Source: Burkholderiales bacterium (GTDB lineage: Bacteria > Pseudomonadota > Gammaproteobacteria > Burkholderiales > SG8-39). From it: a DNA stretch of 64,000 nucleotides. The notes below the pieces were generated by a model. That model saw only the letters and a program-made list of their open reading frames with translations, ran no database searches and had not been told where the DNA came from. Shown here piece after piece: positions 5,707 through 51,154 of this stretch (the first letter of the stretch is position 1; every line of letters begins with the position of its first letter). The position numbers were made by a program, and so were the translations under genes. Location of the stretch: NCBI GenBank assembly GCA_035702665.1, contig DASSQD010000069.1, forward strand, positions 14,201-78,200, given 5' to 3'.

Positions 5707-6549
5707 ATGAAACTCAGCCGGGAGCAGATCCAGCGCTTTGAGCAAGACGGATTTCTTTTCTTTCCGAGCCTCTTCCGACCCGAGGAAGTGAAGGTGCTCA
5801 CCGACGAGGTTCCGCGGCTCTACGCCCAGCGTCGGCCGGAGAACGTCCGCGAAAAGGGCGGCGACGCCGTACGGACGAATTTCGCGGCGCACTTGTACAG
5901 CCTCCCTTTCGCCAAGCTCGCGCGTCACCCGCGCATGGTCGAGCCGATCGTCCAGATCTTCGGCGAGGACGTGTACATGCACCAGTTCAAGATCAACGGC
6001 AAGATGGCGTTCGACGGTGACGTATGGCAGTGGCACCAGGACTACGGCACCTGGAAGAACGACGACTGGATGCCCGAAGCCCGCGCCATGAACATCGCGA
6101 TATTCCTCGACGAGGTCACCGAATTCAACGGACCTCTGATGTTCATCCCGGGAAGCCACGCGCGCGGCGTGCTAGACGCCCGGCACGATACTTCCACGAC
6201 CAGCTATCCCCTGTGGACGATCGACCACCGCACGATCGCGAAGCTCGTGGAGCGCGGCAGCATAGTCGCGCCGAAGGGGCCGGCCGGCTCGATGATCTTG
6301 TTCCACTCATGCCTGGTCCACGCTTCGACATCGAATCTTTCTCCCTGGAACCGTGTGAGCGTGTACTTGAGCCTGTGCGCGGTGTCGAACCATATCCGGC
6401 GCTTCAAACGTCCCGAGTACATCGCGCATCGGGACTTCGCCCCCATTCAGTGTCTGCCGGACGATTGCCTGCTGAAGGATTATCCGGTTCCGCTCCCCTG
6501 GAAAGACGGTACGCCCGCCGAAGCGCTTCAGCCTTCCGTCGCGGCGTAG
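5707..6549 (+). CDS. Fe(II)/2-oxoglutarate dioxygenase, PhyH family, ectoine-hydroxylase-related
   Basis: WQWHQDYGTWKNDDWMP resembles the EctD signature WHSDFETWHxEDG[ML]P. Has an HxD plus distal His (LVHAS) facial triad. Confidence 0.7.
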   Translation: MKLSREQIQRFEQDGFLFFPSLFRPEEVKVLTDEVPRLYAQRRPENVREKGGDAVRTNFAAHLYSLPFAKLARHPRMVEPIVQIFGEDVYMHQFKINGKMAFDGDVWQWHQDYGTWKNDDWMPEARAMNIAIFLDEVTEFNGPLMFIPGSHARGVLDARHDTSTTSYPLWTIDHRTIAKLVERGSIVAPKGPAGSMILFHSCLVHASTSNLSPWNRVSVYLSLCAVSNHIRRFKRPEYIAHRDFAPIQCLPDDCLLKDYPVPLPWKDGTPAEALQPSVAA

Positions 6550-6552
6550 TCC

Positions 6553-7926
6553 GTGAACCTGCACGCTAAACTGCAGGAGCGCGAAGCGCAGGGGAGACCA
6601 CTGCGCGTCGGGGTCATCGGGGCGGGCAAATTCGCGGCGATGTATCTCGCGCAGACGCCCCGCACCCCGGGCGTGCACGTTGCCGGCATCGCCGACCTCT
6701 CGCCCGCGGGGGTGCGTACCAACCTCGCCCGCGTGGGATGGAGGCCGGAGAGCTGGGCTGCCGCGTCTCTGGACGCTGCGCTGAAGGAGCGGCGCACGCA
6801 TGTGTCGGACGACTGGGAAGCGCTGGTCTCCCATCCTCACATCGACATCGTGATCGAGGCGACCGGGAATCCGGTGGCGGCCGTCAGGCATGCGCTTGCG
6901 GCTTTTCGTAACCGCAAGCACGTCATCATGGTCACCGTGGAGGCCGACGCAGTCTGCGGTCCGCTGCTTGCCCGAAGAGCGCGCGACGCCGGAGTGGTGT
7001 ACAGCCTCGCGTATGGTGATCAGCCGGCGATCATCTGCGATCTGGTCGATTGGGCGCGCGCCGCCGGTTTTCCCGTCGTCGCCGCAGGGCGTGGCCACAA
7101 GTGGCTTCCTCATTTCGCGCAATCGACGCCCGAGACAGTGTGGCAGCACTACGGGTTGACGCCGGAGCAGGCGCGTATCGGCGGCCTGAATCCGAAAATG
7201 TTCAACTCGTTCCTGGACGGCTCGAAACCCGCGATCGAATGCACCGCGGTATGCAATGCGACCGGGCTGACGCCGGCCCCGGAAGGCCTGACGTACCCGA
7301 GCGCGTCGATCGACGGGCTTCCCGGCCTCATGCGGCCGCGATCGGAGGGAGGGTGCCTGCACCACAAGGGCCAGGTCGAGGTGGTGTCCTCGTTGGAGCG
7401 CGACGGAGGGGCGATCGCCTACGACATTCGCTTCGGCGTTTGGGTAGTATTCGAGGGAGAATCGGACTATATCCGCCGCTGCTTCACGGAATATGGTGTT
7501 CGCACCGACCCCTCCGGCCGCTATGCGTGCATGTACAAGCGTTGGCATCTTATCGGCCTGGAAGTCGGAGTTTCCGTGGCCTCCGTGGGGGTGAGGGGGG
7601 AGGCCACTGGCTGCCCGACCGGCTTTCGCGCAGACGCCGTGGCAAGCGCCAAGCGTGACCTCGTGGCAGGGGAATTGCTTGACGGTGAAGGGGGTTACAC
7701 GGTGGTCGGGAGGCTGATGCCGGCGCCTGATTCGCTCCGCCTGGGGGCCCTGCCCCTGGGCCTTGCGCACCAAGCTAGGCTGGTGAATCCCGTGAGGGCC
7801 GGCGCGCCGGTGCTATGGAGCGACGTGGCAATCGACGCATCCAGCGACGCCGTCAGGTTACGGCGCGAAATGGAGGTCGCGTTCGCGGCACCGCGGAAAA
7901 ATCCCGCGCATGACAGCGTGGTATGA
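6553..7926 (+). CDS. NAD(P)-binding oxidoreductase with C-terminal SAF domain (COG4091-like, homoserine-dehydrogenase-like)
   Basis: Rossmann N-terminus LRVGVIGAGKFAAMY, 457 aa. GTG start lies 3 nt after the dioxygenase stop. Confidence 0.55.
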   Translation: MNLHAKLQEREAQGRPLRVGVIGAGKFAAMYLAQTPRTPGVHVAGIADLSPAGVRTNLARVGWRPESWAAASLDAALKERRTHVSDDWEALVSHPHIDIVIEATGNPVAAVRHALAAFRNRKHVIMVTVEADAVCGPLLARRARDAGVVYSLAYGDQPAIICDLVDWARAAGFPVVAAGRGHKWLPHFAQSTPETVWQHYGLTPEQARIGGLNPKMFNSFLDGSKPAIECTAVCNATGLTPAPEGLTYPSASIDGLPGLMRPRSEGGCLHHKGQVEVVSSLERDGGAIAYDIRFGVWVVFEGESDYIRRCFTEYGVRTDPSGRYACMYKRWHLIGLEVGVSVASVGVRGEATGCPTGFRADAVASAKRDLVAGELLDGEGGYTVVGRLMPAPDSLRLGALPLGLAHQARLVNPVRAGAPVLWSDVAIDASSDAVRLRREMEVAFAAPRKNPAHDSVV

Positions 7927-8042
7927 CGGAAACATAACGATTTGGAATTCCTCGCCATTTCGAAGCAAATATAGTGTAATGCGAAGTTCGGGGAGGGGAG
8001 CTGGCCGGAGGTCGCCGGCTCCAGTTCCGGGGCAGGGAAATC

Positions 8043-9152
8043 ATGAAAACCACCACATCCAGACCGCTGACGCTTGTCCACGATTCGGTCGAGGCCAAAC
8101 TTGCGCCTCTAAAGATCCTGGTCATTGACGACCAGTCGACCGGGCGCATCGTCCTCAGCGAGATCATGCGGGGCTTGGACGCGAGTCTCGAGGTCACCAC
8201 GTTCGCCGATCCGCTCGAGGCCATCGAGTTCGCGCGCAGGCATCCGGTGGACATGGTGCTCACCGACTACAAGATGCCCAGCCTGGACGGAATCGAGGTG
8301 ATCCGCCGGCTGCGCCGCATTTTCGGCTATGAAGACGTTCCCATCGTCTGTATCACGGTCGTCAACGATCGCGAGGTCAGGTATCGTGCCCTGGAAGCCG
8401 GAGCGACCGATTTCCTCATTCGGCCCATCGATCGGCTGGAATGCGGCGCGCGCTGCCGCAATCTCCTGAGCCTGCGCCGCCACGAGATCCTGAAGAAGAA
8501 CCGCACCCGTATTCTCGAGCAGAAGATCGACGAGGCGACCCGCGAGTTGCGCCGGCGCGAAGTCGAGACCTTGTTCCGGCTCGCCAAGGCGGCCGAGCAG
8601 CGCGACAAGGTGACCGGGATGCACTTGGTGCGCATGGCCAAGTATTCGGCTCTCATCGCCAAGGGCGTAGGTCTGTCGGCGGCCGAGCAGGACGCGATCG
8701 AGCTCGCAGCGCCGATGCACGACATCGGCAAAATCGGGATTCCCGACCGCATCCTCCAGAATCCGGGTAGGCTCGACGGTCACGATCTGCGGGTCATGCA
8801 ATCGCACGCGCGCATCGGCTATGACATGCTCAAGGACAGCTCGTCGGGCTATCTGCAAATGGCCGCCGTGATCGCGCTCGGTCATCACGAGAAGTACGAC
8901 GGCAGCGGCTATCCGACCGGTCTCAGAGGCGAGCATATCCCGCTGGAGGCGCGAATCGTCGCGATCGCGGATGTCTATGATGCCCTGACCTCGGTGCGCC
9001 CCTACAAGCCGGCGTGGCCGGTCGAGGAGGCGCTCGCGTACATGGACGAGCACGCCGGTCGCCACTTCGATCCGAAGCTCGTCGAGATTCTCGCGCGCGA
9101 ACGCGAGGAGGTTCTTTCCATCGGCGAGCGATTCGCCGACCAGGTCGAATAG
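8043..9152 (+). CDS. rpfG: response regulator with HD-GYP c-di-GMP phosphodiesterase domain (RpfG-type)
   Basis: REC domain (ILVIDDQ..DMVLTDYKMPSLDG) followed by HD-GYP (MHDIGKIGIPD..HHEKYDGSGYPTGL). Confidence 0.85.
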   Translation: MKTTTSRPLTLVHDSVEAKLAPLKILVIDDQSTGRIVLSEIMRGLDASLEVTTFADPLEAIEFARRHPVDMVLTDYKMPSLDGIEVIRRLRRIFGYEDVPIVCITVVNDREVRYRALEAGATDFLIRPIDRLECGARCRNLLSLRRHEILKKNRTRILEQKIDEATRELRRREVETLFRLAKAAEQRDKVTGMHLVRMAKYSALIAKGVGLSAAEQDAIELAAPMHDIGKIGIPDRILQNPGRLDGHDLRVMQSHARIGYDMLKDSSSGYLQMAAVIALGHHEKYDGSGYPTGLRGEHIPLEARIVAIADVYDALTSVRPYKPAWPVEEALAYMDEHAGRHFDPKLVEILAREREEVLSIGERFADQVE

Positions 9153-9166
9153 CCGGGAACCGGCCC

Positions 9167-11674
9167 ATGGCGGAATCGCTCTTCGCGCGTCTGCGGAGCC
9201 GCTTCATCAGCCAGAGTGACACCGAACTCGAGCAGGCGAAGCTGCGCCTGGGCGTCGGGCTGGTGCTCTTCCTCTACCTGCTGCCGCACGTTCTGGACGA
9301 GCGTGGGCCGAACTTGCTGCTTTTCACGGCGATGGCCTGCTACCTCGCGCTGTGCGTGACGGTCTTCGCCTGGATCTACGCCTCGCCCGCGGCTTCTGCA
9401 GCGCGTCGCGTCTTCGCAGCGTTCGTGGACATCGGCTCGACGTCGGCGTTCATGTATTACCTGGGCGAATCCGGGGCGGTCCTGTACACCTTCTACCTGT
9501 TGATCATGTTCGGCCACGGCTTCCGCTACGGAAAGCCCTATCTGTACAACGCCCTGGGACTGAGTCTCCTCGGCTTCGGACTGGTCCTCTATTACAGTGC
9601 GTATTGGATCGAGAATCGCACGCTGGGGCTCGGTCTTCTCCTCGGCATGATCCTGCTGGCGCTGTGGGTGGGAAAGATGGTGACCCAGTTGTTCGATTCG
9701 CTGCGGCGGGAGGAGGCCGCGAACCAGGCGAAACGCAGATTCCTGTCGACCGTCAGCCACGAGATGCGCACGCCGCTGAACGCGATCATCGGCATGAACG
9801 ATCTGCTGCGCGACACGCCCCTGAATGCGGAGCAGACGGAGATGGTCAAGGCGATGCACGAGGCATCGCACTCCATGTTGAAGCTGATCGAGGACGTCCT
9901 AGACATCTCGAAGATCGAGGCCGGCAAGGTCAACATCGAGGAGACCGACTTCGATCTTCACAGCCTCATCAACGGCACCGCGGTGGTGCTCGGTCCGCAA
10001 GCCGAGATCCGCGGCTTGCAGTTTCGGGCGCACGTGATGCCGGAGGTCCCGCATGCCTTACGAGGCGATCCCTACCATCTGCGCCAGGTGCTCTACAACC
10101 TGATCGGCAACGGCATCAAGTTCACCCAAGCGGGCAGTGTCACGCTTACGGTCTCGAGCCTGGGTGAGAGCGAGCACGCGGTCCGCCTGAGATTCGCCAT
10201 CGAAGACACGGGCATCGGCATCGCCCCCGACGCGCAGGACCGGATCTTCGAGAGCTTTACGCAGGCGGACGAATCGACCACGCGCCGCTACGGCGGCACT
10301 GGACTCGGAACCACGATCTCGAAGCAGCTGGTCGAGATGATGGGCGGCCAGATAGGATTGCAGAGCACGTTGGGCAAGGGCAGCACGTTCTGGTTCGAGC
10401 TTCAGCTCAAGAAGCAGGTCGTGGGTCAGGTTCCGGAGGCCACCTTCCGGCTGAACGACATTCGCATCATGCTCCTTGGCTTCGCCGAAACCGAGTTGCG
10501 GGTACTGGAGCACGACCTCGCGACTTGGGGAGCGCGTACCGGGCGCGAGGCGGGACTGGAGGCGGCCGGGGCGCGGCTCGCTGAAGCGCAGTCGCTCGGG
10601 CATCCCTACCACCTCGTCCTGGTTCGCGAAGCCGAGGAAATCGATCCGGCACGGATCGTCGCCCGGCTGCAGAGCGTGCGGGGACAGAAGCATCCGCCGC
10701 TCGTGCTCTGCACGCGCGGAGTGTCCCCCGATCGCAGCAGCGAAGCCCTGGCCGGCGGCTTCGTGGCGGTGCTCGAGATGCCGTTCAAGAAGCGGCTCCT
10801 GTTCAACGTCATCCACTCCGCCACGGCCATTCAGGAGAGCCAGGAAGGCGTCATCTCGCTCAGCGACTACTACGCTGCGCGCGACGCCAACAAGCGCCGC
10901 TACCAGATACTGGTGGCGGAGGACAATGCGGTCAATCAGCGCGTCATCCTGGGGATACTCGAGCGCGCCGGGCACCGCGTCAAGGTCGTGGGGGACGGGG
11001 AGCAGGCATTGGATGTGCTGGAGAACGAACGCTTCGATGTGGTCATCATGGATCTGAACATGCCGGAGCTCGGCGGACTGGACGCCGCCCGGGCCTACCG
11101 CTTCATGGATCCGGAGGCCGTGCACGTTCCTATCATCATGCTGTCCGCGGACGTCACGGCGGAGGCGCGAAAGGAATGCGAGGAAGCCGGGATCGACGCG
11201 TTCCTGTCCAAGCCGGTGGAGGCTCGCCGGCTGCTCGACACCATCGCCAGCCTGATCGCCAAGCGCGCAAGCGATCGGGAGGCCGCGGCCGACAGCGCCG
11301 GGGAAGTCGAGGCGATGGTCGTGAACCCGGCGGCGTTGACCGAGCTCGAGCTGATCGGTTCCGGCAGCACCTTCATGCCGGAGCTGGTCAACGGATTCAT
11401 CCAGGACGGCGAGGCGCTGCTCAGGCAGATGGAAGCGGCTATCGCCGCGAAGCAGTACGACACGCTCAAGGACCTGGTGCACGCGATGAAGGGCTCGGCA
11501 GTGACCCTGGGCGCCGATCAGCTGTGCAAGACCTGCGTTGGAATCAACGCGCAGACGAGCGCCGAGTTGGAGGCGAACGGACCCAGGGTGCTGAAGCTCG
11601 TACGCGAGCATTTCCTGCAGGCGCGCACTTCGCTCCTGGAGTATCTCAAGCAAAGCCAAAGCGCGGCGCGCTAG
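9167..11674 (+). CDS. rpfC: hybrid sensor histidine kinase RpfC-type (multi-TM input, HisKA, HATPase, REC, HPt)
   Basis: TM input region with FYLLIMFGHGFRYGKPYLY (RpfC-like motif). H-box STVSHEMRTPLN, REC DVVIMDLNMPELGG, HPt HAMKGSAVTLGA. ATG 9167 chosen; the 9014 extension overlaps rpfG. Confidence 0.85.
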   Translation: MAESLFARLRSRFISQSDTELEQAKLRLGVGLVLFLYLLPHVLDERGPNLLLFTAMACYLALCVTVFAWIYASPAASAARRVFAAFVDIGSTSAFMYYLGESGAVLYTFYLLIMFGHGFRYGKPYLYNALGLSLLGFGLVLYYSAYWIENRTLGLGLLLGMILLALWVGKMVTQLFDSLRREEAANQAKRRFLSTVSHEMRTPLNAIIGMNDLLRDTPLNAEQTEMVKAMHEASHSMLKLIEDVLDISKIEAGKVNIEETDFDLHSLINGTAVVLGPQAEIRGLQFRAHVMPEVPHALRGDPYHLRQVLYNLIGNGIKFTQAGSVTLTVSSLGESEHAVRLRFAIEDTGIGIAPDAQDRIFESFTQADESTTRRYGGTGLGTTISKQLVEMMGGQIGLQSTLGKGSTFWFELQLKKQVVGQVPEATFRLNDIRIMLLGFAETELRVLEHDLATWGARTGREAGLEAAGARLAEAQSLGHPYHLVLVREAEEIDPARIVARLQSVRGQKHPPLVLCTRGVSPDRSSEALAGGFVAVLEMPFKKRLLFNVIHSATAIQESQEGVISLSDYYAARDANKRRYQILVAEDNAVNQRVILGILERAGHRVKVVGDGEQALDVLENERFDVVIMDLNMPELGGLDAARAYRFMDPEAVHVPIIMLSADVTAEARKECEEAGIDAFLSKPVEARRLLDTIASLIAKRASDREAAADSAGEVEAMVVNPAALTELELIGSGSTFMPELVNGFIQDGEALLRQMEAAIAAKQYDTLKDLVHAMKGSAVTLGADQLCKTCVGINAQTSAELEANGPRVLKLVREHFLQARTSLLEYLKQSQSAAR

Positions 11675-11696
11675 CGCGCGCAAGGCCCGTCAGTTA

Positions 11697-11960
11697 ATGA
11701 TCGATCCAGCGCTGCGCGACCAGGTAATCCGCCGCCTCCTTGCCGCGTCCGATGCCAAAGTCGCCGCTAAGGACGTCGCCGACGCGACCTCGCTCCGCGA
11801 CGACCTCGACATCAGCTCCTTGATTCTCATCACCCTGGCCTCCGAGTTGGAGGACGCCTTGCGCATCGACTTCGAGGACGAGGAGCTCAGTCGCATCCGG
11901 ACGATAGGCGATCTGTTCGAGGCGATCGAGAACAGCCAGCGGCGGTCACGGTCGGCGTAA
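11697..11960 (+). CDS. acyl carrier protein, divergent (locus-specific)
   Basis: 87 aa and acidic. The Ser-containing helix-II motif is DDLDISSLILITLASELEDAL, where canonical ACPs have DSL. Second ACP in the window. Confidence 0.7.
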   Translation: MIDPALRDQVIRRLLAASDAKVAAKDVADATSLRDDLDISSLILITLASELEDALRIDFEDEELSRIRTIGDLFEAIENSQRRSRSA

Positions 11961-11974
11961 CGCGGTTCGAATCG

Positions 11975-13225
11975 ATGGCATCTCGGCGCGTGGCGATCAC
12001 CGGAGTGGGCATGATTTCGTGCCTCGGGCACGAATACGCCCAGGTCGTGAACGCCCTGCAAAGGGGCGCGAGCGGCGTCCGCGCCATGCCGGAATGGGGA
12101 CGCCTGGGCCTGAAGAGCTTGGTGGCGGGCGCGATCTCGGATGTCGACTCAAAGCTGGAACGCACGCCGATTCCCAAGAAGCTGCTTCCCGTGATGTCGG
12201 AAGCGTCCAAGTACTGCTGCATTGCGTCCCTGGACGCGGTCAGGGACTCCGGCCTTTCCGAATCCGACGTTCAATCCGACCGGACCGCGTGCATCGTCGG
12301 CACGGGAATCGGAAGCGTCGAGTCGATCTACGCTGGAGGGCGGCACGTGTATTCCGGCGAGATCGGCAAGGTCAGCCCCTTCGTCGTCCTGAGGGGCATG
12401 GCGAGCTCGTCGAGCGCGGCGGTCGCGAACCTGCTCAAGGTCCACGGACGCAGCTACTCGATCAGTTCGGCGTGCTCGACTTCCTCCCACAGCATCGGTA
12501 CGGCGTACGAGCTCATCCGCCACGGTCTCGTCGACCGCGCCGTGGCGGGCGGGGGAGAGGAAGTGCACCCGCTCATCAGCGCGGGCTTCCAGGCGCTGCG
12601 GTTCGCCCTGTCATCCAAGTACAACGACGAACCGCAGCGGGCGTCGCGCCCGTACGATCGCGACCGCGACGGGTTCGTTATAGGCGGCGGCGCAGGGATC
12701 GTCGTTCTGGAAGCGCTGGATCTCGCTCTTGCCAGAGGCGCGCGTCCGCGCGCCGAGATCATCGGATTCGGCACCAGCTCGGACGGCTTCGACATGGTGA
12801 TGCCGGAGCCGACGGGCACTCACGCCGCGAAATGCATGTTGAACGCCATCCAGGACGGCGGTATCGGTCCGGGGGAAGTCGGCGCCGTCAAGACCCACGG
12901 TACGTCGACGACGAAGGGCGACCTCGCAGAAGTGATCGCGATGAAAGCGGTGTTCGACGGACGGCTGCCCCCGTTCTCGTCGACAAAATCCATGACCGGC
13001 CATCCGCTGGGGGCGGCCGGCGCGCTCGAGACGATTTTCTGCGTGGCCATGCTGGAGAACGGATTCATCGCGCCGTCGATCAACATCGAAAACCTCGATC
13101 CCGACTTTGAGGGACTGCCTATCGTGAGCGCGGCCAGAGGGGTCGAGTTGAACACTATTCTTTCGAACAGTTTCGGCTTCGGCGGGACCAACGCCAGCCT
13201 TCTGCTGAAGGCGTTTCCAGGTTGA
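11975..13225 (+). CDS. beta-ketoacyl-ACP synthase I/II family (Cys-His-His)
   Basis: SSACSTSSHSIG (Cys), KTHGTSTTKGD (His), SMTGHPLGAAG (His), C-terminal [14 protein letters not shown]. Paralog of fabF at 39232. Confidence 0.88.
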   Translation: MASRRVAITGVGMISCLGHEYAQVVNALQRGASGVRAMPEWGRLGLKSLVAGAISDVDSKLERTPIPKKLLPVMSEASKYCCIASLDAVRDSGLSESDVQSDRTACIVGTGIGSVESIYAGGRHVYSGEIGKVSPFVVLRGMASSSSAAVANLLKVHGRSYSISSACSTSSHSIGTAYELIRHGLVDRAVAGGGEEVHPLISAGFQALRFALSSKYNDEPQRASRPYDRDRDGFVIGGGAGIVVLEALDLALARGARPRAEIIGFGTSSDGFDMVMPEPTGTHAAKCMLNAIQDGGIGPGEVGAVKTHGTSTTKGDLAEVIAMKAVFDGRLPPFSSTKSMTGHPLGAAGALETIFCVAMLENGFIAPSINIENLDPDFEGLPIVSAARGVELNTILSNSFGFGGTNASLLLKAFPG

Positions 13226-13348
13226 GGTGCGAACTCGCAGGGCCGGGCCCGGATCCGACCATGGGAGAAAGTGCTGCCGGGGCGCATCTGAACGCACCGG
13301 TCAAGACGGACCAGATCCGCCCCGGCAGGCCGCGGAATCGCGGCGAAG

Positions 13349-13383
13349 GCCGGTCCCCCTCGACGATCGGTCGGGGGACCGGC
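13349..13383. terminator. GC-rich stem-loop between convergent KAS and rpfF genes (possible bidirectional terminator)
   Basis: Perfect 11-bp inverted repeat GCCGGTCCCCC (13349-13359) / GGGGGACCGGC (13373-13383) with a 13-nt loop. No U-tract on either strand. Confidence 0.45.
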
Positions 13384-13395
13384 TCAAGGTCGTGC

Positions 13396-14319
13396 TTAGG
13401 CCATTGCGAAGCGAAGCTCGCCCGCCCGTTCGTCGAGAGCAGGGCTTTCGGTGCGCCGGATTTGCGAGCGCCCGAGGCGGCTCATCAGCTTAAGGTCCTT
13501 CTCCTCGACACGCAGCGCCGCGTCAACCCAGACGTTGGCGATGTTGCGCAGCTCGTCGTAGGTGATTGGGTTGAGGTGTCGCCGGCATTCGAGCATCGCC
13601 TGCACGCCGTTGCGCCGCCGCTCGTTGTTGCGGATGTAAGACCGCACCGCGGACTCTCCGTCGCCGTCTTCGGCGATGACGTCCACGACGCCCATCTCGT
13701 GGAGCTGGGCGGCCGAGTAGACGCGCCCGGACAGGATCATCTCCTCGGCGCGCTTCGTCCCGACGCGCCGCGCGAGCAGGCTGTAGGCGCCGTTGCCGGG
13801 AAACAGGTTGAAGAGGATTTCCGGCAGCCCCATCTGCGAGCGGCGCTCGGCGATGATCACGCTCGAGGCGAGCGCGGTTTCAAAGCCGCCGCCCAGTGCT
13901 TCTCCCTGCACCAGCGAAATCGTAGTGATAGGGCTGTTGTAGTTGCAGAGCCTGGGGTACATGTTGTCCACGCACAGCTTGGCGTAACGCGCAAGAGTGT
14001 CGCGATCTCCCGACCTGATGAGCTGCACCAGGCTCGAGAGATTTCCGCCGAGACTGAAAATGCCTTCGACCCTGGACGCGCCCACGTAGTAGTGGATCTG
14101 GCGCAATTCCCCCTGGTGCAGCACGCGGCCTCCCGAGGACTCGATCGCGCTGTCGTGGGCGCGCAGCTCTTCGAGCATGGCCAGGTTGAAGCACGGCGCG
14201 CCGAGAGGCTTCATGTACGTCCAGGTGGCCGCGAGCTCGGGATCGAAGCGGACCTCGATCTGCCGGTATTGCCTTTGAAACATCCCCTCTATAGCTCCAA
14301 AATCGACCGGTGCGTTCAT
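13396..14319 (-). CDS. rpfF: DSF synthase-like enoyl-CoA hydratase/crotonase (RpfF family)
   Basis: Aligns from memory with Xanthomonas RpfF at LGGNLSSLVQLIRSGDR, VQGEALGGGFETAL, MGLPEILFNLFPGNGAYS and WVDAALRVEEKDLKLMSRLGRSQ. AAGGGA Shine-Dalgarno lies before ATG 14319. Confidence 0.85.
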   Translation of the reverse strand: MNAPVDFGAIEGMFQRQYRQIEVRFDPELAATWTYMKPLGAPCFNLAMLEELRAHDSAIESSGGRVLHQGELRQIHYYVGASRVEGIFSLGGNLSSLVQLIRSGDRDTLARYAKLCVDNMYPRLCNYNSPITTISLVQGEALGGGFETALASSVIIAERRSQMGLPEILFNLFPGNGAYSLLARRVGTKRAEEMILSGRVYSAAQLHEMGVVDVIAEDGDGESAVRSYIRNNERRRNGVQAMLECRRHLNPITYDELRNIANVWVDAALRVEEKDLKLMSRLGRSQIRRTESPALDERAGELRFAMA

Positions 14320-14416
14320 CGTTTTCCCTTTCGTTGGTGTGTTGAAGATACTGATTGTGGAAGAAAAGCTGTTTTGCGCAGACTATACTCCCAATCGAAT
14401 GCTGACAAGGGAGGCG

Positions 14417-14441
14417 TATTCCATTGTCCTATTCCACTGTC
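14417..14441. repeat. tandem direct repeat TATTCCAYTGTC x2 in the rpfF/cyclase divergent intergenic region (possible regulator site)
   Basis: TATTCCATTGTC at 14417-14428 and TATTCCACTGTC at 14430-14441, a 13-bp register. Confidence 0.4.
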
Positions 14442-14546
14442 ATGGCGACCGGCGCACAGCCATAGCCCCGGTGAACGCGTGAAAATTTGGCACCCCGTCA
14501 GGGCGGGGCGGGTCCCGCTCGAGGGCGATGCAGAGACGTTCGCACG

Positions 14547-16190
14547 ATGACGAACCTGAAGACGCGCGCCCGCATACTCGCCCTCGTCGTCCTCGCGGCG
14601 CTGCCAGCACTGGTTCTGACCGTCTACAGCGCGCTCGAGCGTCGTGAGACGGAAGAAAGGCAGGCACGCGCCGAGCTCGTGCGCCTGGTAAGGCTGGCTG
14701 CGATGCAGCAATGGCAGGTCGTGGAGAGCGCCCGGCAGATGATGGCCGCATCGCTGCCTATCCTCGTCACGCTGGTGGACGACGGGCGGCGCTGCACGGA
14801 GTACTTCGGGAACTTGCTCGCGCAGAACCGTGACAACTATCACGCGATGGGCCTGTTCGATGCGAGCGGCAACCTGCTCTGCAACGCGAAGACTTGGCGG
14901 GCAAAGGTGTACAGCGGCGACCGTCTCTACTTCAGGCTGGCCAAGGAAACGGGTCGATTCGCCGTCGGCGAATATCAGATCGGTCGCGTGACGGGCCAAG
15001 CGGGGATCAATTTCGGCTACCCGGTCAAGGACGCCGGCAGCAAGGTCCGCGCCGTAGCCTTCGCCGGGCTCGACCTCAAGGACCTCGCGCGAATGGCCGA
15101 GGCGACGCCGCTGCCGCCCGACGGCATCCTGAGCGTGATCGACGTGAAGGGGACGATCCTCTCGCGCAAGCCCGCCCTGAACGAGCGCATCGGCGAGAAG
15201 CTGTGGAATCCCCAGGTGATCGAGTCGATACTCGCCGGGAGCGAGGGCGTGCTCGAAGTCAAGGGCGAGGACGGCGTCAACTGGCTGCTCGCCCACCAGG
15301 TCATCTATAAGAACCCCGACGGCGCCTTTCCGCTGCGAGTCCTGATCACGGTGCCGCTGAGCCAGGTTTTCGCCGAGGCGAATCGGGCGCTGGTTCGCGA
15401 CCTGCTCGGGATCTTGCTGGCTACTCTGTTCCTTCTCGTCGCCGCCTGGTTCGGCGCCGAGCTGTTCATGCTGCGGAAGTTCAGGGCCCTGCTCGGCGCG
15501 GCAGAACGCATGCGCGGCGGCGACCTGAATGCGCGCACCGGCATCGAGTACGGAAAGGAAGAGCTCGGCCAGCTCGCGCACGCCTTCGACGACATGGCGG
15601 GAGCACTCCAGCTGCGCGAGCAGAGGCTTCAGGAGCAGGCGATATCGGACCCGCTCACCGGTCTGTACAACCGCCGCTACCTCAACGAGTTCCTCCCGCG
15701 CGAACTGGCGCGGTCGGGCCGCAACAAGACGCCTGTCGCGGTGATACTGCTCGACTTGGACAGGTTCAAAGGGGTGAACGATTCGTTCGGGCACGAGGCG
15801 GGCGACCTCGTCCTGAGCGCCGTCGCGAACCTGCTGAAAGGGAAAGTACGGGGCAGCGACATCGCCTGCCGCTACGGCGGCGAGGAATTCGCCCTGGTGC
15901 TGCCCGAGACCGGCCTCGAGCCGGCAGCGAGACGCGCCGAGGACATACGCGTCGCCATCTCCGCGCTCGATCTCAAGTATGCGGGAAGATACTTCGGCAG
16001 GATGACGGCGTCGATCGGGATCGCTCTGTTCCCGGATCACTCGCGGGACGCCGACGGCCTGTTGCGCGTCGCCGACATCGCGCTCTATGCCGCCAAAGGC
16101 GCAGGCCGCGACCGGGTTGTCGTAGCACACGGGGCCGGGTCCGATGCTGCAGAGCGAGTCGATTCAGGCTCGGCCGGCGCGCGACGATGA
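14547..16190 (+). CDS. sensor diguanylate cyclase (TM, Cache-like periplasmic domain, HAMP, GGDEF)
   Basis: N-terminal TM ILALVVLAALPALVLTVY and a second TM before the HAMP domain. Active-site GGEEF, with an RGSD (RxxD I-site) 5 residues upstream. ATG 14547 chosen. Confidence 0.88.
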   Translation: MTNLKTRARILALVVLAALPALVLTVYSALERRETEERQARAELVRLVRLAAMQQWQVVESARQMMAASLPILVTLVDDGRRCTEYFGNLLAQNRDNYHAMGLFDASGNLLCNAKTWRAKVYSGDRLYFRLAKETGRFAVGEYQIGRVTGQAGINFGYPVKDAGSKVRAVAFAGLDLKDLARMAEATPLPPDGILSVIDVKGTILSRKPALNERIGEKLWNPQVIESILAGSEGVLEVKGEDGVNWLLAHQVIYKNPDGAFPLRVLITVPLSQVFAEANRALVRDLLGILLATLFLLVAAWFGAELFMLRKFRALLGAAERMRGGDLNARTGIEYGKEELGQLAHAFDDMAGALQLREQRLQEQAISDPLTGLYNRRYLNEFLPRELARSGRNKTPVAVILLDLDRFKGVNDSFGHEAGDLVLSAVANLLKGKVRGSDIACRYGGEEFALVLPETGLEPAARRAEDIRVAISALDLKYAGRYFGRMTASIGIALFPDHSRDADGLLRVADIALYAAKGAGRDRVVVAHGAGSDAAERVDSGSAGARR

Positions 16191-38965: not shown

Positions 38966-39208
38966 ATGGAAAACGTTGAACAGCGCGTGAAGAAAATCGT
39001 CGCGGAACAGCTCGGCGTCAACGAGGCGGAGATCAAGAACGAATCCTCGTTTGTCGATGACCTCGGTGCGGATTCCCTCGACACGGTGGAGCTGGTGATG
39101 GCCCTCGAGGAGGAGTTCGAGACCGAGATTCCGGACGAGGAGGCCGAGAAGATCACGACGGTCCAGCAGGCCATCGCGTACGTTTCCGCGCACTCCAAGA
39201 AGACCTGA
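38966..39208 (+). CDS. acpP: acyl carrier protein (housekeeping)
   Basis: [38 protein letters not shown]. Confidence 0.97.
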
Positions 39209-39231
39209 TTTTTCGCACGGCCGGAGTCCAT

Positions 39232-40470
39232 TTGAGCCGCCGTCGTGTCGTCGTCACCGGATTAGGAATCATCTGCCCGATCGGCAACACCGTTGCCGAA
39301 GCCTGGTCGAACATACTCGCCGGCAAGTCCGGAATAGCGCGCATCGCCGCGTTCGATCCGAGTTCCGTCTCCAGCCAGATCGCCGGCGAAGTGAAGAACT
39401 TCGACGTGAGCGCCTATCTCACGCCGAAGGAAGCGCGCCGCATGGACCGCTTCATCCACTTCGGTATCGCCGCGGGCACACAGGCGCTGAAAGATTCGGG
39501 ACTCGAGGTCACGGAAGCCAGCGCTCCGCGCATCGGCGTGAACATCGGCTCTGGAATCGGCGGGTTGCCGGGCATCGAGGAAACGCACAACGACCTGCTC
39601 AAGGGCGGCCCGCGCAAGATCTCACCGTTCTTCATCCCGAGCACCATCATCAACATGATCTCGGGGAACTTCTCGATCATGCACGGCTTGAAGGGGCCCA
39701 ACCTCGCCATGGTCACGGCGTGCACGACCTCGGCGCACTGCATCGGCGAGTCTGGGCGCCTGATCGAGTACGGCGATTGCGACGTGATGGTCGCCGGGGG
39801 CGCCGAGGCGGCGATCACCGAGCTCACCGTCGGCGGGTTCTCGTCCGCGCGGGCGCTCTCGACGCGGAACGACGATCCCGCGACCGCGAGCCGGCCCTGG
39901 GACAGGGACCGCGACGGCTTCGTCCTGGCTGAGGGCGCGGGCGTGCTCGTCCTCGAAGAGCTCGAGCACGCGAAGAAGCGCGGCGCCAAGATCTACGCGG
40001 AGCTCGCGGGTTACGGAATGAGCGGCGACGCCTACCACATGACCGCGCCCCAGGAGAGCGGCGAGGGCGCGGCGCGCTGCATGGAAAACGCGCTGCGCAA
40101 CGCCGGCCTCAATCGCGAGGACATCGATTACATCAACGCCCACGGGACTTCGACACCGCTCGGGGATATCGCCGAGACCGTAGCGGTCAAGCGCTGCTTC
40201 GGGGAACGCGCGAAGAAGCTCGCCGTGAGCTCGACCAAGTCGATGACCGGGCATCTGCTCGGCGCGGCCGGAGGGGTCGAGGCCCTCTTCTCGGTGCTCG
40301 CCATACGCGATCAGGTCGCCCCGCCCACGGCCAACCTGGTCAACCAGGATCCCGCGTGCGACCTCGACTACGTGCCGAATTCCGCGCGCTCCATGCCCGT
40401 GCGGACGGCCCTGTCGAACTCGTTCGGGTTCGGCGGCACCAACGGAACCCTGATCTTCAGGCGCGTCTGA
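39232..40470 (+). CDS. fabF: beta-ketoacyl-ACP synthase II
   Basis: [42 protein letters not shown] start. Confidence 0.96.
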
Positions 40471-50012: not shown

Positions 50013-50753
50013 ATGGCGACGCTCCTCAGCGCGAACATCAACAAGGTCGCCCTGCTGCGCAACACGCGCACGATCGGCATTCCCGACGTCGTCCGCGCGG
50101 CGCGCATCGCCCTGGACGCCGGCGCGCACGGCATCACGGTCCATCCGCGCCCCGACGGGCGCCATGTGCGCGCGCACGACGTGCGGAATCTCGCGAGCGT
50201 GGTGCGGGAGCACCCGGGCGCGGAGTTCAACATCGAGGGCAATCCTTTCCACGGCCTGCTCGAGTTCGTGCGCGAGGTGCGGCCGGCGCAGTGCACGCTC
50301 GTTCCCGACGAGACCGGCGCGTTCACGTCCGACCACGGCTGGGACCTGGCCAGGGATGCGCGCAAGCTCGAACCGGTGCTGGCCGAGCTCAAGGGCCTCA
50401 AGGTGCGCGTGAGCCTCTTTATGGATCCGGTCCCGGACGCGATGGCCGCTGCCGCAGGGCTGGGCGCCGACCGCGTGGAGCTGTACACGGAACCGTACGC
50501 GCGGGCGTTCGCCGGCGCGGATCGCGGCGCGGTGCTCGCGCGCTATGCCGGGGCGGCGCGCGCGGCCCAGGCGCAGGGCTTGGGCGTCAACGCGGGCCAC
50601 GATCTGAACCTCGACAACCTGGCGCCTTTCCTCCGGGTGGTTCCCGGGGTGCTGGAAGTCTCGATCGGGCACGCTCTCATCGCGGACGCGCTGGAGCTCG
50701 GTCTCGCGGAGGCCGTGAGCCGCTATCTCGACGCCATCCGGCAGGGCGCATGA
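50013..50753 (+). CDS. pdxJ: pyridoxine 5'-phosphate synthase
   Basis: LSANINKVALLRNTR..HGITVHPRPDGRH..EVSIGHALI. Confidence 0.94.
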   Translation: MATLLSANINKVALLRNTRTIGIPDVVRAARIALDAGAHGITVHPRPDGRHVRAHDVRNLASVVREHPGAEFNIEGNPFHGLLEFVREVRPAQCTLVPDETGAFTSDHGWDLARDARKLEPVLAELKGLKVRVSLFMDPVPDAMAAAAGLGADRVELYTEPYARAFAGADRGAVLARYAGAARAAQAQGLGVNAGHDLNLDNLAPFLRVVPGVLEVSIGHALIADALELGLAEAVSRYLDAIRQGA

Positions 50754-51154
50754 TTCTCGGCATCGGCACCGATCTGTGCGAGGTGAGCCGCGTCGAGCGC
50801 GCGCTCGAGCGCTTCGGCGAGCGCTTCGCCGCGAGGATCCTGGTGGCGTCCGAGCTCGAGGTGTTCCGCAGGCGCAAGATGCGCGCGGGCTATCTCGCCA
50901 AGCGCTTCGCGGCGAAGGAGGCGTTCTCCAAAGCGCTGGGGGTAGGCATCCGCTACCCGGTCAACTGGCACAACGTGTGGGTCGTCAACGAGCGCTCCGG
51001 AAAGCCCGTGTTCCGGTTCTCCGAGGCGCTGGGCGCGCTTCTCGAGCGCCGCGGCGTCGAAAGCGTCCACCTTTCTCTGACCGACGAGATCGGGATGGCG
51101 TGCGCCTTCGTGGTCATCGAGGGCGCGCGCCGCAAGGGACGATCGAAGGAATGA
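50750..51154 (+). CDS. acpS: holo-ACP synthase
   Basis: MILGIGTDLCEVSRV..FAAKEAFSKALG. ATG overlaps the pdxJ TGA. Confidence 0.92.
   Translation: MILGIGTDLCEVSRVERALERFGERFAARILVASELEVFRRRKMRAGYLAKRFAAKEAFSKALGVGIRYPVNWHNVWVVNERSGKPVFRFSEALGALLERRGVESVHLSLTDEIGMACAFVVIEGARRKGRSKE

Follow-up and report, generated by a model that had tools for sequence, protein, structure and literature searches.

The DNA analysed here (the window) is a stretch of 64,000 nucleotides from a Burkholderiales bacterium (assembly GCA_035702665.1, contig DASSQD010000069.1, positions 14,201 to 78,200 of the forward strand). At 11697-13225 it holds a gene for a divergent acyl carrier protein (ACP) followed by a gene for a FabB-like beta-ketoacyl-ACP synthase (KAS), and this pair lies between the genes of an RpfC-like sensor kinase and of an RpfF-type crotonase, the putative synthase of a signal belonging to the DSF (diffusible signal factor) family. 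Our preferred reading, which we hold tentatively and from comparison of sequences, is that the pair is an optional accessory cassette of the Rpf/DSF-type locus in uncultured soil Burkholderiales, and that it would carry out one round of elongation on a private carrier, giving an extra or altered precursor of the signal. Because close relatives keep the locus without the cassette, the latter would be a modifier of signalling and not a requirement for it.

A private carrier and a FabB-like condensing enzyme

The translation of the first open reading frame (ORF) of the pair contains LRDDLDISSLILITLASELEDAL and DDLDISSLILITLASELEDAL. The protein matches the phosphopantetheine-binding family of Pfam (PF00550; 32.8 bits for a cut-off of 20.8), fails all of the curated AcpP equivalog models (best NCBIfam scores of 38.7 versus 71 and of 25.6 versus 70.45) and is 27% identical to the housekeeping AcpP of the window. 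Alignment to mycobacterial AcpM and to this AcpP predicts S41, in the motif DLDISSL, as the phosphopantetheine attachment site; the carrier reads DDLDISSL where AcpM reads DDLDIDSL. S41 is invariant in an alignment of 24 carrier sequences and the serine is kept in all of the carrier proteins extracted from related loci, the preceding residue being S, D, N or G among the orthologues. The AlphaFold2 model of the carrier, of moderate confidence (predicted local distance difference test score of 69.5), has helices at residues 4-19, 24-30, 39-55, 61-66 and 70-86, in the order expected of an ACP, with helix II (39-55) beginning at the serine. The top matches of this model in Foldseek are all ACPs, at non-significant scores (E > 0.1, template-modelling score <= 0.6).

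Helix II of the carrier is unlike that of its housekeeping counterpart. It is non-acidic, with SLILITLA (in SSLILIT) as opposed to DSLDTVE in the housekeeping AcpP, and S40, I43 and T46 occupy the positions of AcpP D35, D38 and E41, the acidic residues used by housekeeping partner enzymes; T46 is invariant among the carriers and I43 nearly so. At its C-terminus (11937-11957) the carrier has a conserved tail of basic character (QRRSRSA, QRRNRQA or KKRQNRQA), an unusual feature in an acidic carrier protein. The divergent carriers linked to the second kinase type described below (for example in loci L005, L011, L111 and L116) have a tail that is both shorter and less basic, and the C-terminus of the Thermoanaerobaculia carriers is a different one.

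The second gene of the pair encodes a protein with both ketoacyl-synthase domains (PF00109 and PF02801). Its catalytic residues are all intact: Cys167 (SSACSTSS), His308 (THGTSTTKGD), Lys338 and His343 (TGHPLGAAG), together with the gating Phe402 (GFGG), align to Cys163, His298, Lys328, His333 and Phe392 of Escherichia coli FabB. Curated models leave the enzyme below every threshold, with 430.2 bits on the FabB model NF005935 (cut-off 630), 386.5 bits on the FabF model TIGR03150 (cut-off 493.75) and 383.9 on the subfamily model NF005589, just under its cut-off of 387; the window's own FabF passes the FabF equivalog with 669.8 bits against the same 493.75. Structures of FabB in the PDB are matched at 326-349 bits and those of FabF at no more than 281, and identity is about 46-47% to annotated fabB genes as against 38% to the FabF of the window. 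On these comparisons FabB (KAS I), and not FabF, is the enzyme's nearer relative.

With the FabF of the window as root, a neighbour-joining tree unites the rpf-linked enzymes in a single clade, separate from FabB; this clade and another from Thermoanaerobaculia/Acidobacteriota are jointly sister to gammaproteobacterial FabB. Several positions differ from FabB in the alignment. Gly107, which we take to be a pocket position of FabB, is replaced by Ile, as in FabF, while R66 and R124, presumably two of the five basic positions at which FabB docks AcpP, align to Pro and to Ile/Glu, respectively. Both genes of the pair are real and under purifying selection. Computed against five or six orthologues per gene, the pairwise ratio of nonsynonymous to synonymous substitution rates (dN/dS) is 0.07-0.25 in the carrier gene and 0.07-0.14 in the enzyme gene. 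Each of the two proteins has a 100% identical counterpart among the NCBI MAG proteins (MAG, metagenome-assembled genome). Orthologues of the enzyme fall into more than 100 clusters at 59-95% identity; those of the carrier form 204 clusters, nearly all from soil metagenomes and from MAGs of Betaproteobacteria/Burkholderiales.

FabB is the closest characterised family, so that one may wonder whether the enzyme is simply an ordinary housekeeping FabB for unsaturated fatty acids that stands beside rpf genes by chance. This is very improbable: its score is 430 bits where 630 are required, it belongs to a separate clade, it comes with a private carrier in every case and has no fabA next to it, and it is absent from close relatives that are otherwise syntenic. 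A housekeeping FabB or FabF was discarded as a candidate on the curated cut-offs, the separate clade and the absence from syntenic relatives.

The preliminary description of this DNA had set the pair apart from the housekeeping acpP and fabF, placed the serine of the extra ACP within LDISSLILITL and credited the KAS with an elongating Cys-His-His triad. What it says of the sequence holds throughout, including the distinctness of the two genes at the 27% and 38% identity given above; S41 is the serine indicated by the AcpM/AcpP alignment, and C167, H308 and H343 are the residues that align to FabB. Its statement that the locus has no ketoreductase, dehydratase, enoyl reductase, acyltransferase, phosphopantetheinyl transferase or acyl-CoA ligase is essentially right; the AMP-binding gene at 6-1502 is a fragment of an acetoacetate-CoA ligase and not RpfB.

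The rpf locus of the window and its relatives

RpfF enzymes take 3-hydroxyacyl-ACPs as substrates and have both dehydratase and thioesterase activity (PMC4504480). The crotonase encoded downstream of the pair passes the RpfF-like family model NF006452 (351 bits, cut-off 177) and falls short of the RpfF equivalog NF053515 (205.8 bits, cut-off 550). Its best PDB matches are all RpfF (7ZQ7, 3M6M, 6DGN and 5FUS, 170-178 bits), and alignment to 3M6M shows that the motifs GGGFE and LPEI with the catalytic glutamates (Glu141 and Glu161 of RpfF from Xanthomonas campestris pv. campestris, Xcc) are kept. The protein is 40% identical to Xcc RpfF and its orthologues are annotated 'DSF synthase' in IMG. 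Its dN/dS (0.10-0.21), like that of the kinase (0.08-0.20), is in the range found for the carrier and the enzyme. In the motif FPGNGAYS the window's crotonase has Asn at a position where Met is found in the other orthologues compared for it (L087/L088, L093, L094 and L097) and also in the RpfF structures of the Xanthomonas type; we take this Met to line the acyl pocket of RpfF.

The RpfC-type kinase and the RpfG-type REC-HD-GYP regulator are encoded adjacent to this synthase and convergent with it, and the locus is thus of the rpf kind. The kinase gene stops 22 bp before the carrier gene starts, a further 14 bp separate carrier and enzyme, and all three are on the same strand; these short gaps suggest that the pair is co-transcribed with rpfG-rpfC. 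A promoter and terminator scan of 7800-14700 gave nothing above the shuffled expectation and detected no T-run terminator. The gap between the convergent enzyme and crotonase genes contains two GC-rich inverted repeats free of T-runs, with arms at 13274-13290/13312-13328 (17 nt, 94% complementary) and 13349-13359/13373-13383 (11 nt, 100%), which may be candidate bidirectional terminator hairpins.

A free ACP, a ketosynthase and an enoyl-CoA hydratase-like protein are also the superficial content of the cassettes that introduce beta-branches into polyketides by way of an HMG-CoA synthase. In those cassettes the ketosynthase is a decarboxylase that lacks the active-site Cys, and here this Cys is retained. 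Moreover, none of the approximately 40 loci compared below has a gene for an HMG-CoA synthase or a polyketide synthase (PKS), the locus of the window likewise has no HMG-CoA synthase, and a PKS-type crotonase model gives the crotonase only 57 bits, where the RpfF-like model gives 351. We give the idea of a remnant of such a cassette next to no credence; it was rejected on the retained Cys, the lack of an HMG-CoA synthase and the RpfF-like crotonase.

Related loci were collected in two ways. The first sample, anchored on the condensing enzyme, comprises about 40 loci whose enzymes are 71-86% identical to that of the window and whose genes were mapped by tblastn; the kinase was counted in the 31 loci with enough flank and the crotonase in the 31 loci with at least about 1 kb of downstream sequence. 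Every locus counted (31/31) has a hybrid kinase gene immediately upstream of the pair and in the same orientation, and in 27 of 31 a convergent crotonase gene follows downstream. Two kinds of kinase module occur. The type A module consists of RpfG and of an RpfC 70-90% identical to that of the window, the RpfG-like protein being 84-98% conserved in type A loci. The type B module (L173:6908-13483, L174:3580-10369, L166:3873-7716, L005:3594-7632) has a kinase only 32% identical to that of the window, a divergent REC-only regulator and an XRE-type helix-turn-helix (HTH) gene; it may replace RpfG/RpfC upstream of the pair, or sit between RpfC and the crotonase in loci that have no pair. In the crotonase tree (like those of the kinase and the regulator, neighbour-joining without support values), type-B-linked crotonases nest among type-A-linked ones, and the trio of carrier, enzyme and crotonase has therefore been combined with different sensors. 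That the trio travels with two kinase types argues for a functional tie between the pair and the synthase.

Five loci of this sample (L087, L088, L093, L094 and L097) have a PlsC-type acyltransferase gene between enzyme and crotonase, which the window does not have. The protein is approximately 270 residues long (L087:9290-10114, minus strand, as the crotonase), with NHxxxxD and FPEGT motifs and 89.9 bits on PF01553; its presence hints that the acyl chain of the private carrier is perhaps also passed to a lipid acceptor. In L005 and L166 the kinase-carrier-enzyme unit adjoins genes for a type IV secretion system (T4SS), TraI and IS605, which suggests that the type B module of these two loci is carried on a conjugative element. 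No copy of the cassette was found in the plasmid collection, where the only matches were of FabB type at less than 48% identity.

The second sample is anchored on the crotonase and comprises six loci with crotonases 74-79% identical to that of the window. The pair is present in two of them (L171 and the P0157 contig) and absent from the other four. In L170 and L172, the genes for PhyH, DRL, RpfG and RpfC converge straight on the crotonase gene across a clean gap of about 60-95 bp that keeps no trace of the pair; L173 and L174 have genes for RpfG, RpfC, the HTH protein and the type B regulator and kinase that converge on the crotonase gene, again with no pair. The pair is thus dispensable for the locus. 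Loci that lack it are nested among loci that bear it in the kinase, regulator and crotonase trees, which implies that the pair was lost, gained or recombined repeatedly.

Beyond the Burkholderiales, the sister clade of the window's enzyme is formed by MAGs of Thermoanaerobaculia/Acidobacteriota, with 60-64% identity. Here the gene order is carrier, FabB-like enzyme, hot-dog dehydratase of the FabA/ApeI kind and metallophosphoesterase (L002:7736-10664, L167, L168 and L169), with two aldehyde dehydrogenases, an NAD_binding_4/epimerase-type reductase and a PilZ protein encoded on its flanks, and the carriers share the SSL...TL signature of helix II with that of the window. A pair accompanied by a crotonase in one clade and by a FabA-like partner in the other defines a unit found across phyla, namely a carrier, a FabB-like enzyme and a dehydratase that may be of either fold.

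Every organism that carries the cassette is uncultured, and in the genome collection a close orthologue occurs in six species-level genomes only, all of them MAGs. Two of the six have an rpf locus of the Burkholderiales type on contigs deposited under other names, L010 (CAYSFD010000047.1) in a MAG labelled 'uncultured Enterobacteriaceae bacterium' and L011 (JAERMM010000363.1) in one labelled 'Chloroflexota bacterium'; these two labels are probably binning or labelling errors.

Table 1. Features of the window, with strand and the basis of each assignment.
Feature	Position	Strand	Basis or remark
PhyH-type Fe/2-oxoglutarate dioxygenase	5707-6549	+	Pfam
DRL-type NAD-binding oxidoreductase	6553-7926	+	Pfam
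RpfG-like response regulator, REC and HD-GYP-type HD domain	8043..9152	+	PF00072, PF13487, PF01966
RpfC-like hybrid sensor kinase: multi-pass membrane N-terminus, HisKA, HATPase, REC, Hpt	9167..11674	+	Pfam; start codon checked
Specialised acyl carrier protein, 87 aa	11697..11960	+	PF00550 match, AcpM alignment, dN/dS
FabB-like beta-ketoacyl-ACP synthase, 416 aa	11975..13225	+	PF00109 and PF02801 matches, catalytic residues, tree
Inverted repeats (two)	13274..13383	.	In the 170-bp gap between the convergent enzyme and crotonase genes
RpfF-type crotonase, 307 aa, putative DSF-family signal synthase	13396..14319	-	Profiles, PDB matches
dCache-HAMP-GGDEF diguanylate cyclase, start uncertain	14487..16190	+	Pfam; divergent from the crotonase gene
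Housekeeping acpP (38966-39208) and fabF (39232-40470)	38966..40470	+	plsX-fabH-fabD-fabG-acpP-fabF operon
AcpS	50750-51154		PF01648 match; only phosphopantetheinyl transferase identified in the window

The neighbouring genes are collected with the pair in Table 1. An HD-GYP regulator and a GGDEF sensor are both coupled around the synthase, and a GGDEF gene adjoins the crotonase in most of the related loci, whether or not they have the pair. The nearest model of the dioxygenase is ectoine hydroxylase, with a score below its cut-off. The PhyH and DRL genes are variable accessory genes that stand where the rpf locus begins on its upstream side; they are retained at the rpf locus of L001, the upstream flank of which is otherwise unlike that of the window, and the two enzymes might modify or degrade the signal. 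They are also present in L170 and L172, which have no pair, and missing from the P0157 locus, which has one; PhyH-DRL and the pair thus vary independently, and the DRL-type oxidoreductase was dismissed on this ground as a candidate for the missing ketoreductase.

A possible role of the cassette in making the signal

We infer the biochemical steps and the identity of the product from the nature of the encoded proteins. The carrier would be phosphopantetheinylated and malonylated by enzymes encoded elsewhere, and the condensing enzyme would draw an acyl primer from the general pool of fatty acids and load it on Cys167. Condensation of this primer with the malonyl-carrier would leave a 3-oxoacyl thioester on the private carrier, which a borrowed reductase of the FabG type would convert to the 3-hydroxyacyl thioester, the FabD and FabG of the window being the presumed source of the borrowed activities. 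The RpfF-type crotonase would then dehydrate the latter to a cis-2-enoyl thioester and hydrolyse it, freeing the fatty-acid signal. The cassette would in this way most likely add or change a signal species, in chain length or unsaturation, through the primer preference of its enzyme, or else boost the supply of precursor. That it fixes an unusual chain length, as had been suggested in the preliminary description, is still the most natural reading.

Several observations weigh against a role of the pair in signal synthesis. The genes of the pair are grouped with those of the sensor, rpfG-rpfC, instead of with the synthase gene, and no ketoreductase, malonyl transferase or phosphopantetheinyl transferase is linked to it. 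Since helix II of the carrier is without the acidic residues of AcpP, it is uncertain from the alignment whether the carrier could use the housekeeping AcpS, FabD and FabG. Four type B loci (L005, L102, L111 and L166) have the pair and no crotonase within the 0.7-8 kb available downstream. The sister clade pairs its carrier and enzyme with a FabA-like dehydratase and has no kinase, crotonase or rpf genes. Finally, the crotonase alignment has no column that tells the loci bearing the pair from those lacking it, a comparison of low power with 29 sequences on one side and only 4 on the other. The proposal that a private pair serves the signal synthase, made in the preliminary description, is supported in part: the crotonase lies downstream of the pair in 27 of 31 loci, and four of six crotonase-anchored loci do without the pair.

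Some of these observations would fit an output or side pathway, in which the pair does not feed the signal synthase but provides a particular acyl chain for some lipid or other metabolite, its expression being coupled to the sensor kinase. The genes of the pair run in the direction of rpfG-rpfC at gaps of 22 and 14 bp, and the link to the kinase, upstream in 31 of 31 loci, is tighter than that to the crotonase, which four loci with kinase and pair do not have nearby; a PlsC-type acyltransferase intervenes between enzyme and crotonase in five loci, and in the sister clade the neighbours are aldehyde dehydrogenases and a reductase instead of signalling genes. Yet 27 of 31 loci, over two kinase types, do have the crotonase next to the pair, the acyltransferase is missing from the window and from most loci, and no further lipid-assembly genes are linked. 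We regard such a side pathway as rather unlikely, yet as a serious rival of the accessory cassette.

The four crotonase-free loci can also be read as a self-contained second signal system, in which enzyme and carrier make the ligand of the type B kinase (for example a 3-oxo acid or the methyl ketone formed by its decay), the unit spreads on conjugative elements and the link to the crotonase is secondary. In L005 and L166, the HTH gene, regulator, type B kinase, carrier and enzyme do stand next to T4SS, TraI and IS605 genes with no crotonase, and the carriers of these loci make up a divergent subgroup whose motifs are DSL, NSM or SSM. However, no thioesterase or other release enzyme is evident at these loci. 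The 209-aa ORF that follows the enzyme in L166 has no Pfam match, and a long antisense ORF overlaps it in DNA of high GC content. The downstream flanks are short in three of the four, and in L173 and L174 the type B kinase adjoins a crotonase without any pair. On balance, a second system of this kind seems decidedly improbable.

A different purpose for a private carrier would be to confine the promiscuous thioesterase of RpfF, so that bulk acyl-ACPs are protected and repair by RpfB is replaced. RpfF enzymes are indeed broad thioesterases, whose action RpfB counteracts in Xanthomonas (PMC4504480); the locus has no RpfB-type ligase, and helix II of the carrier is strongly divergent. However, four of the six close loci keep the crotonase, still have no RpfB and yet do without the carrier, and loci with and without the pair interleave in the crotonase tree. 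Shielding requires a crotonase specific for the private carrier, and the crotonase shows no sign of this, no column discriminating the two kinds of loci in the low-power comparison described above. The shielding of bulk lipid synthesis put forward in the preliminary description therefore finds no support, and we consider it improbable.

Returning to the accessory cassette, a further-reaching version of it would make carrier, enzyme and crotonase a three-protein synthase of a structurally new DSF-family signal, for example a chain-extended acid, or a 2,4- or 2,5-dienoic acid formed when an unsaturated primer is elongated in the manner of FabB. As the cassette is gained or lost, and with the second kinase as a further option, signalling 'dialects' would arise among closely related soil Burkholderiales, and the unit of kinase, carrier and enzyme would pass from genome to genome on conjugative elements. 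This we think unlikely.

Comparison with known systems

The pair is most economically read as one of the NodF/NodE kind. Its parallel is in rhizobia, where NodF and NodE are a specialised ACP and KAS that produce the polyunsaturated acyl chain of Nod factors, everything else being provided by the housekeeping fatty-acid synthase. In both cases a private ACP stands beside an enzyme of the KAS I/II type, with no ketoreductase, dehydratase, enoyl reductase or acyltransferase of its own, and is presumed to divert intermediates of fatty-acid synthesis into a signal. Unlike NodF/NodE, the pair of the window is found in an rpf context, has its enzyme in a FabB-like clade of its own and its carrier with a non-acidic helix II. 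With regard to E. coli-type FabB, which is the best structural and sequence match and has an identical Cys-His-His triad, Lys and GFGG loop, the enzyme of the window differs in being about 46-47% identical, with Gly107 replaced by Ile, a partly changed basic patch and a private carrier. The uncharacterised clusters of Thermoanaerobaculia/Acidobacteriota share the carrier-enzyme pair and the SSL...TL signature, and differ by their hot-dog dehydratase and the absence of kinase and rpf genes.

An extra paralogue of a core enzyme of fatty-acid synthesis is already known to take part in supplying the DSF precursor, as we propose for the cassette: FabG2 (XCC0416) of X. campestris is an accessory reductase of long-chain 3-oxoacyl-ACPs that raises DSF output without being required for it (PMC5941067). 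In contrast to the cassette, FabG2 acts in reduction and not condensation, works with the housekeeping ACP and is encoded outside the rpf cluster. As for the cluster itself, Xanthomonas has rpfB-rpfF convergent with rpfGHC (PMC4504480), and the window shares with it the RpfF-type crotonase, the RpfC-type kinase, the RpfG-type regulator and a sensor operon that converges on the synthase. It departs from the Xanthomonas layout in having a carrier and a FabB-like enzyme between rpfC and rpfF, in the absence of rpfB and rpfH, in a crotonase that scores under the RpfF equivalog cut-off and in the GGDEF sensor as a constant neighbour, and loci of the window type are moreover modular, with optional PhyH-DRL genes, second kinase module and PlsC-like acyltransferase. 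No description of an ACP/KAS pair in an rpf cluster was found in the full-text literature, the coverage of which is incomplete so that this is absence of evidence only, and a 2015 review has no such pair among the DSF systems that it covers (PMC4504480). An apparent match to 'fabB' in a paper on Leptospirillum proved to be the surname Fabbri. A cassette of this kind in a DSF-type locus has apparently not been described before.

The signals of the DSF family are thought to be drawn from the general pool of 3-hydroxyacyl-ACPs, with RpfF alone selecting the chain. If our preferred reading of the pair as an accessory cassette is right, a condensing enzyme and a private carrier encoded within the locus would give this class of signals its first known case of upstream chemistry of its own, and three genes would constitute a compact unit for making defined cis-2 fatty acids. 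A FabB-related clade that always comes with its own carrier and with a dehydratase of either fold bears on how type II fatty-acid synthesis is recruited into specialised pathways. For the bacteria themselves, the presence or absence of the cassette in otherwise syntenic loci would offer a simple genetic basis for the diversification of signals between close relatives.

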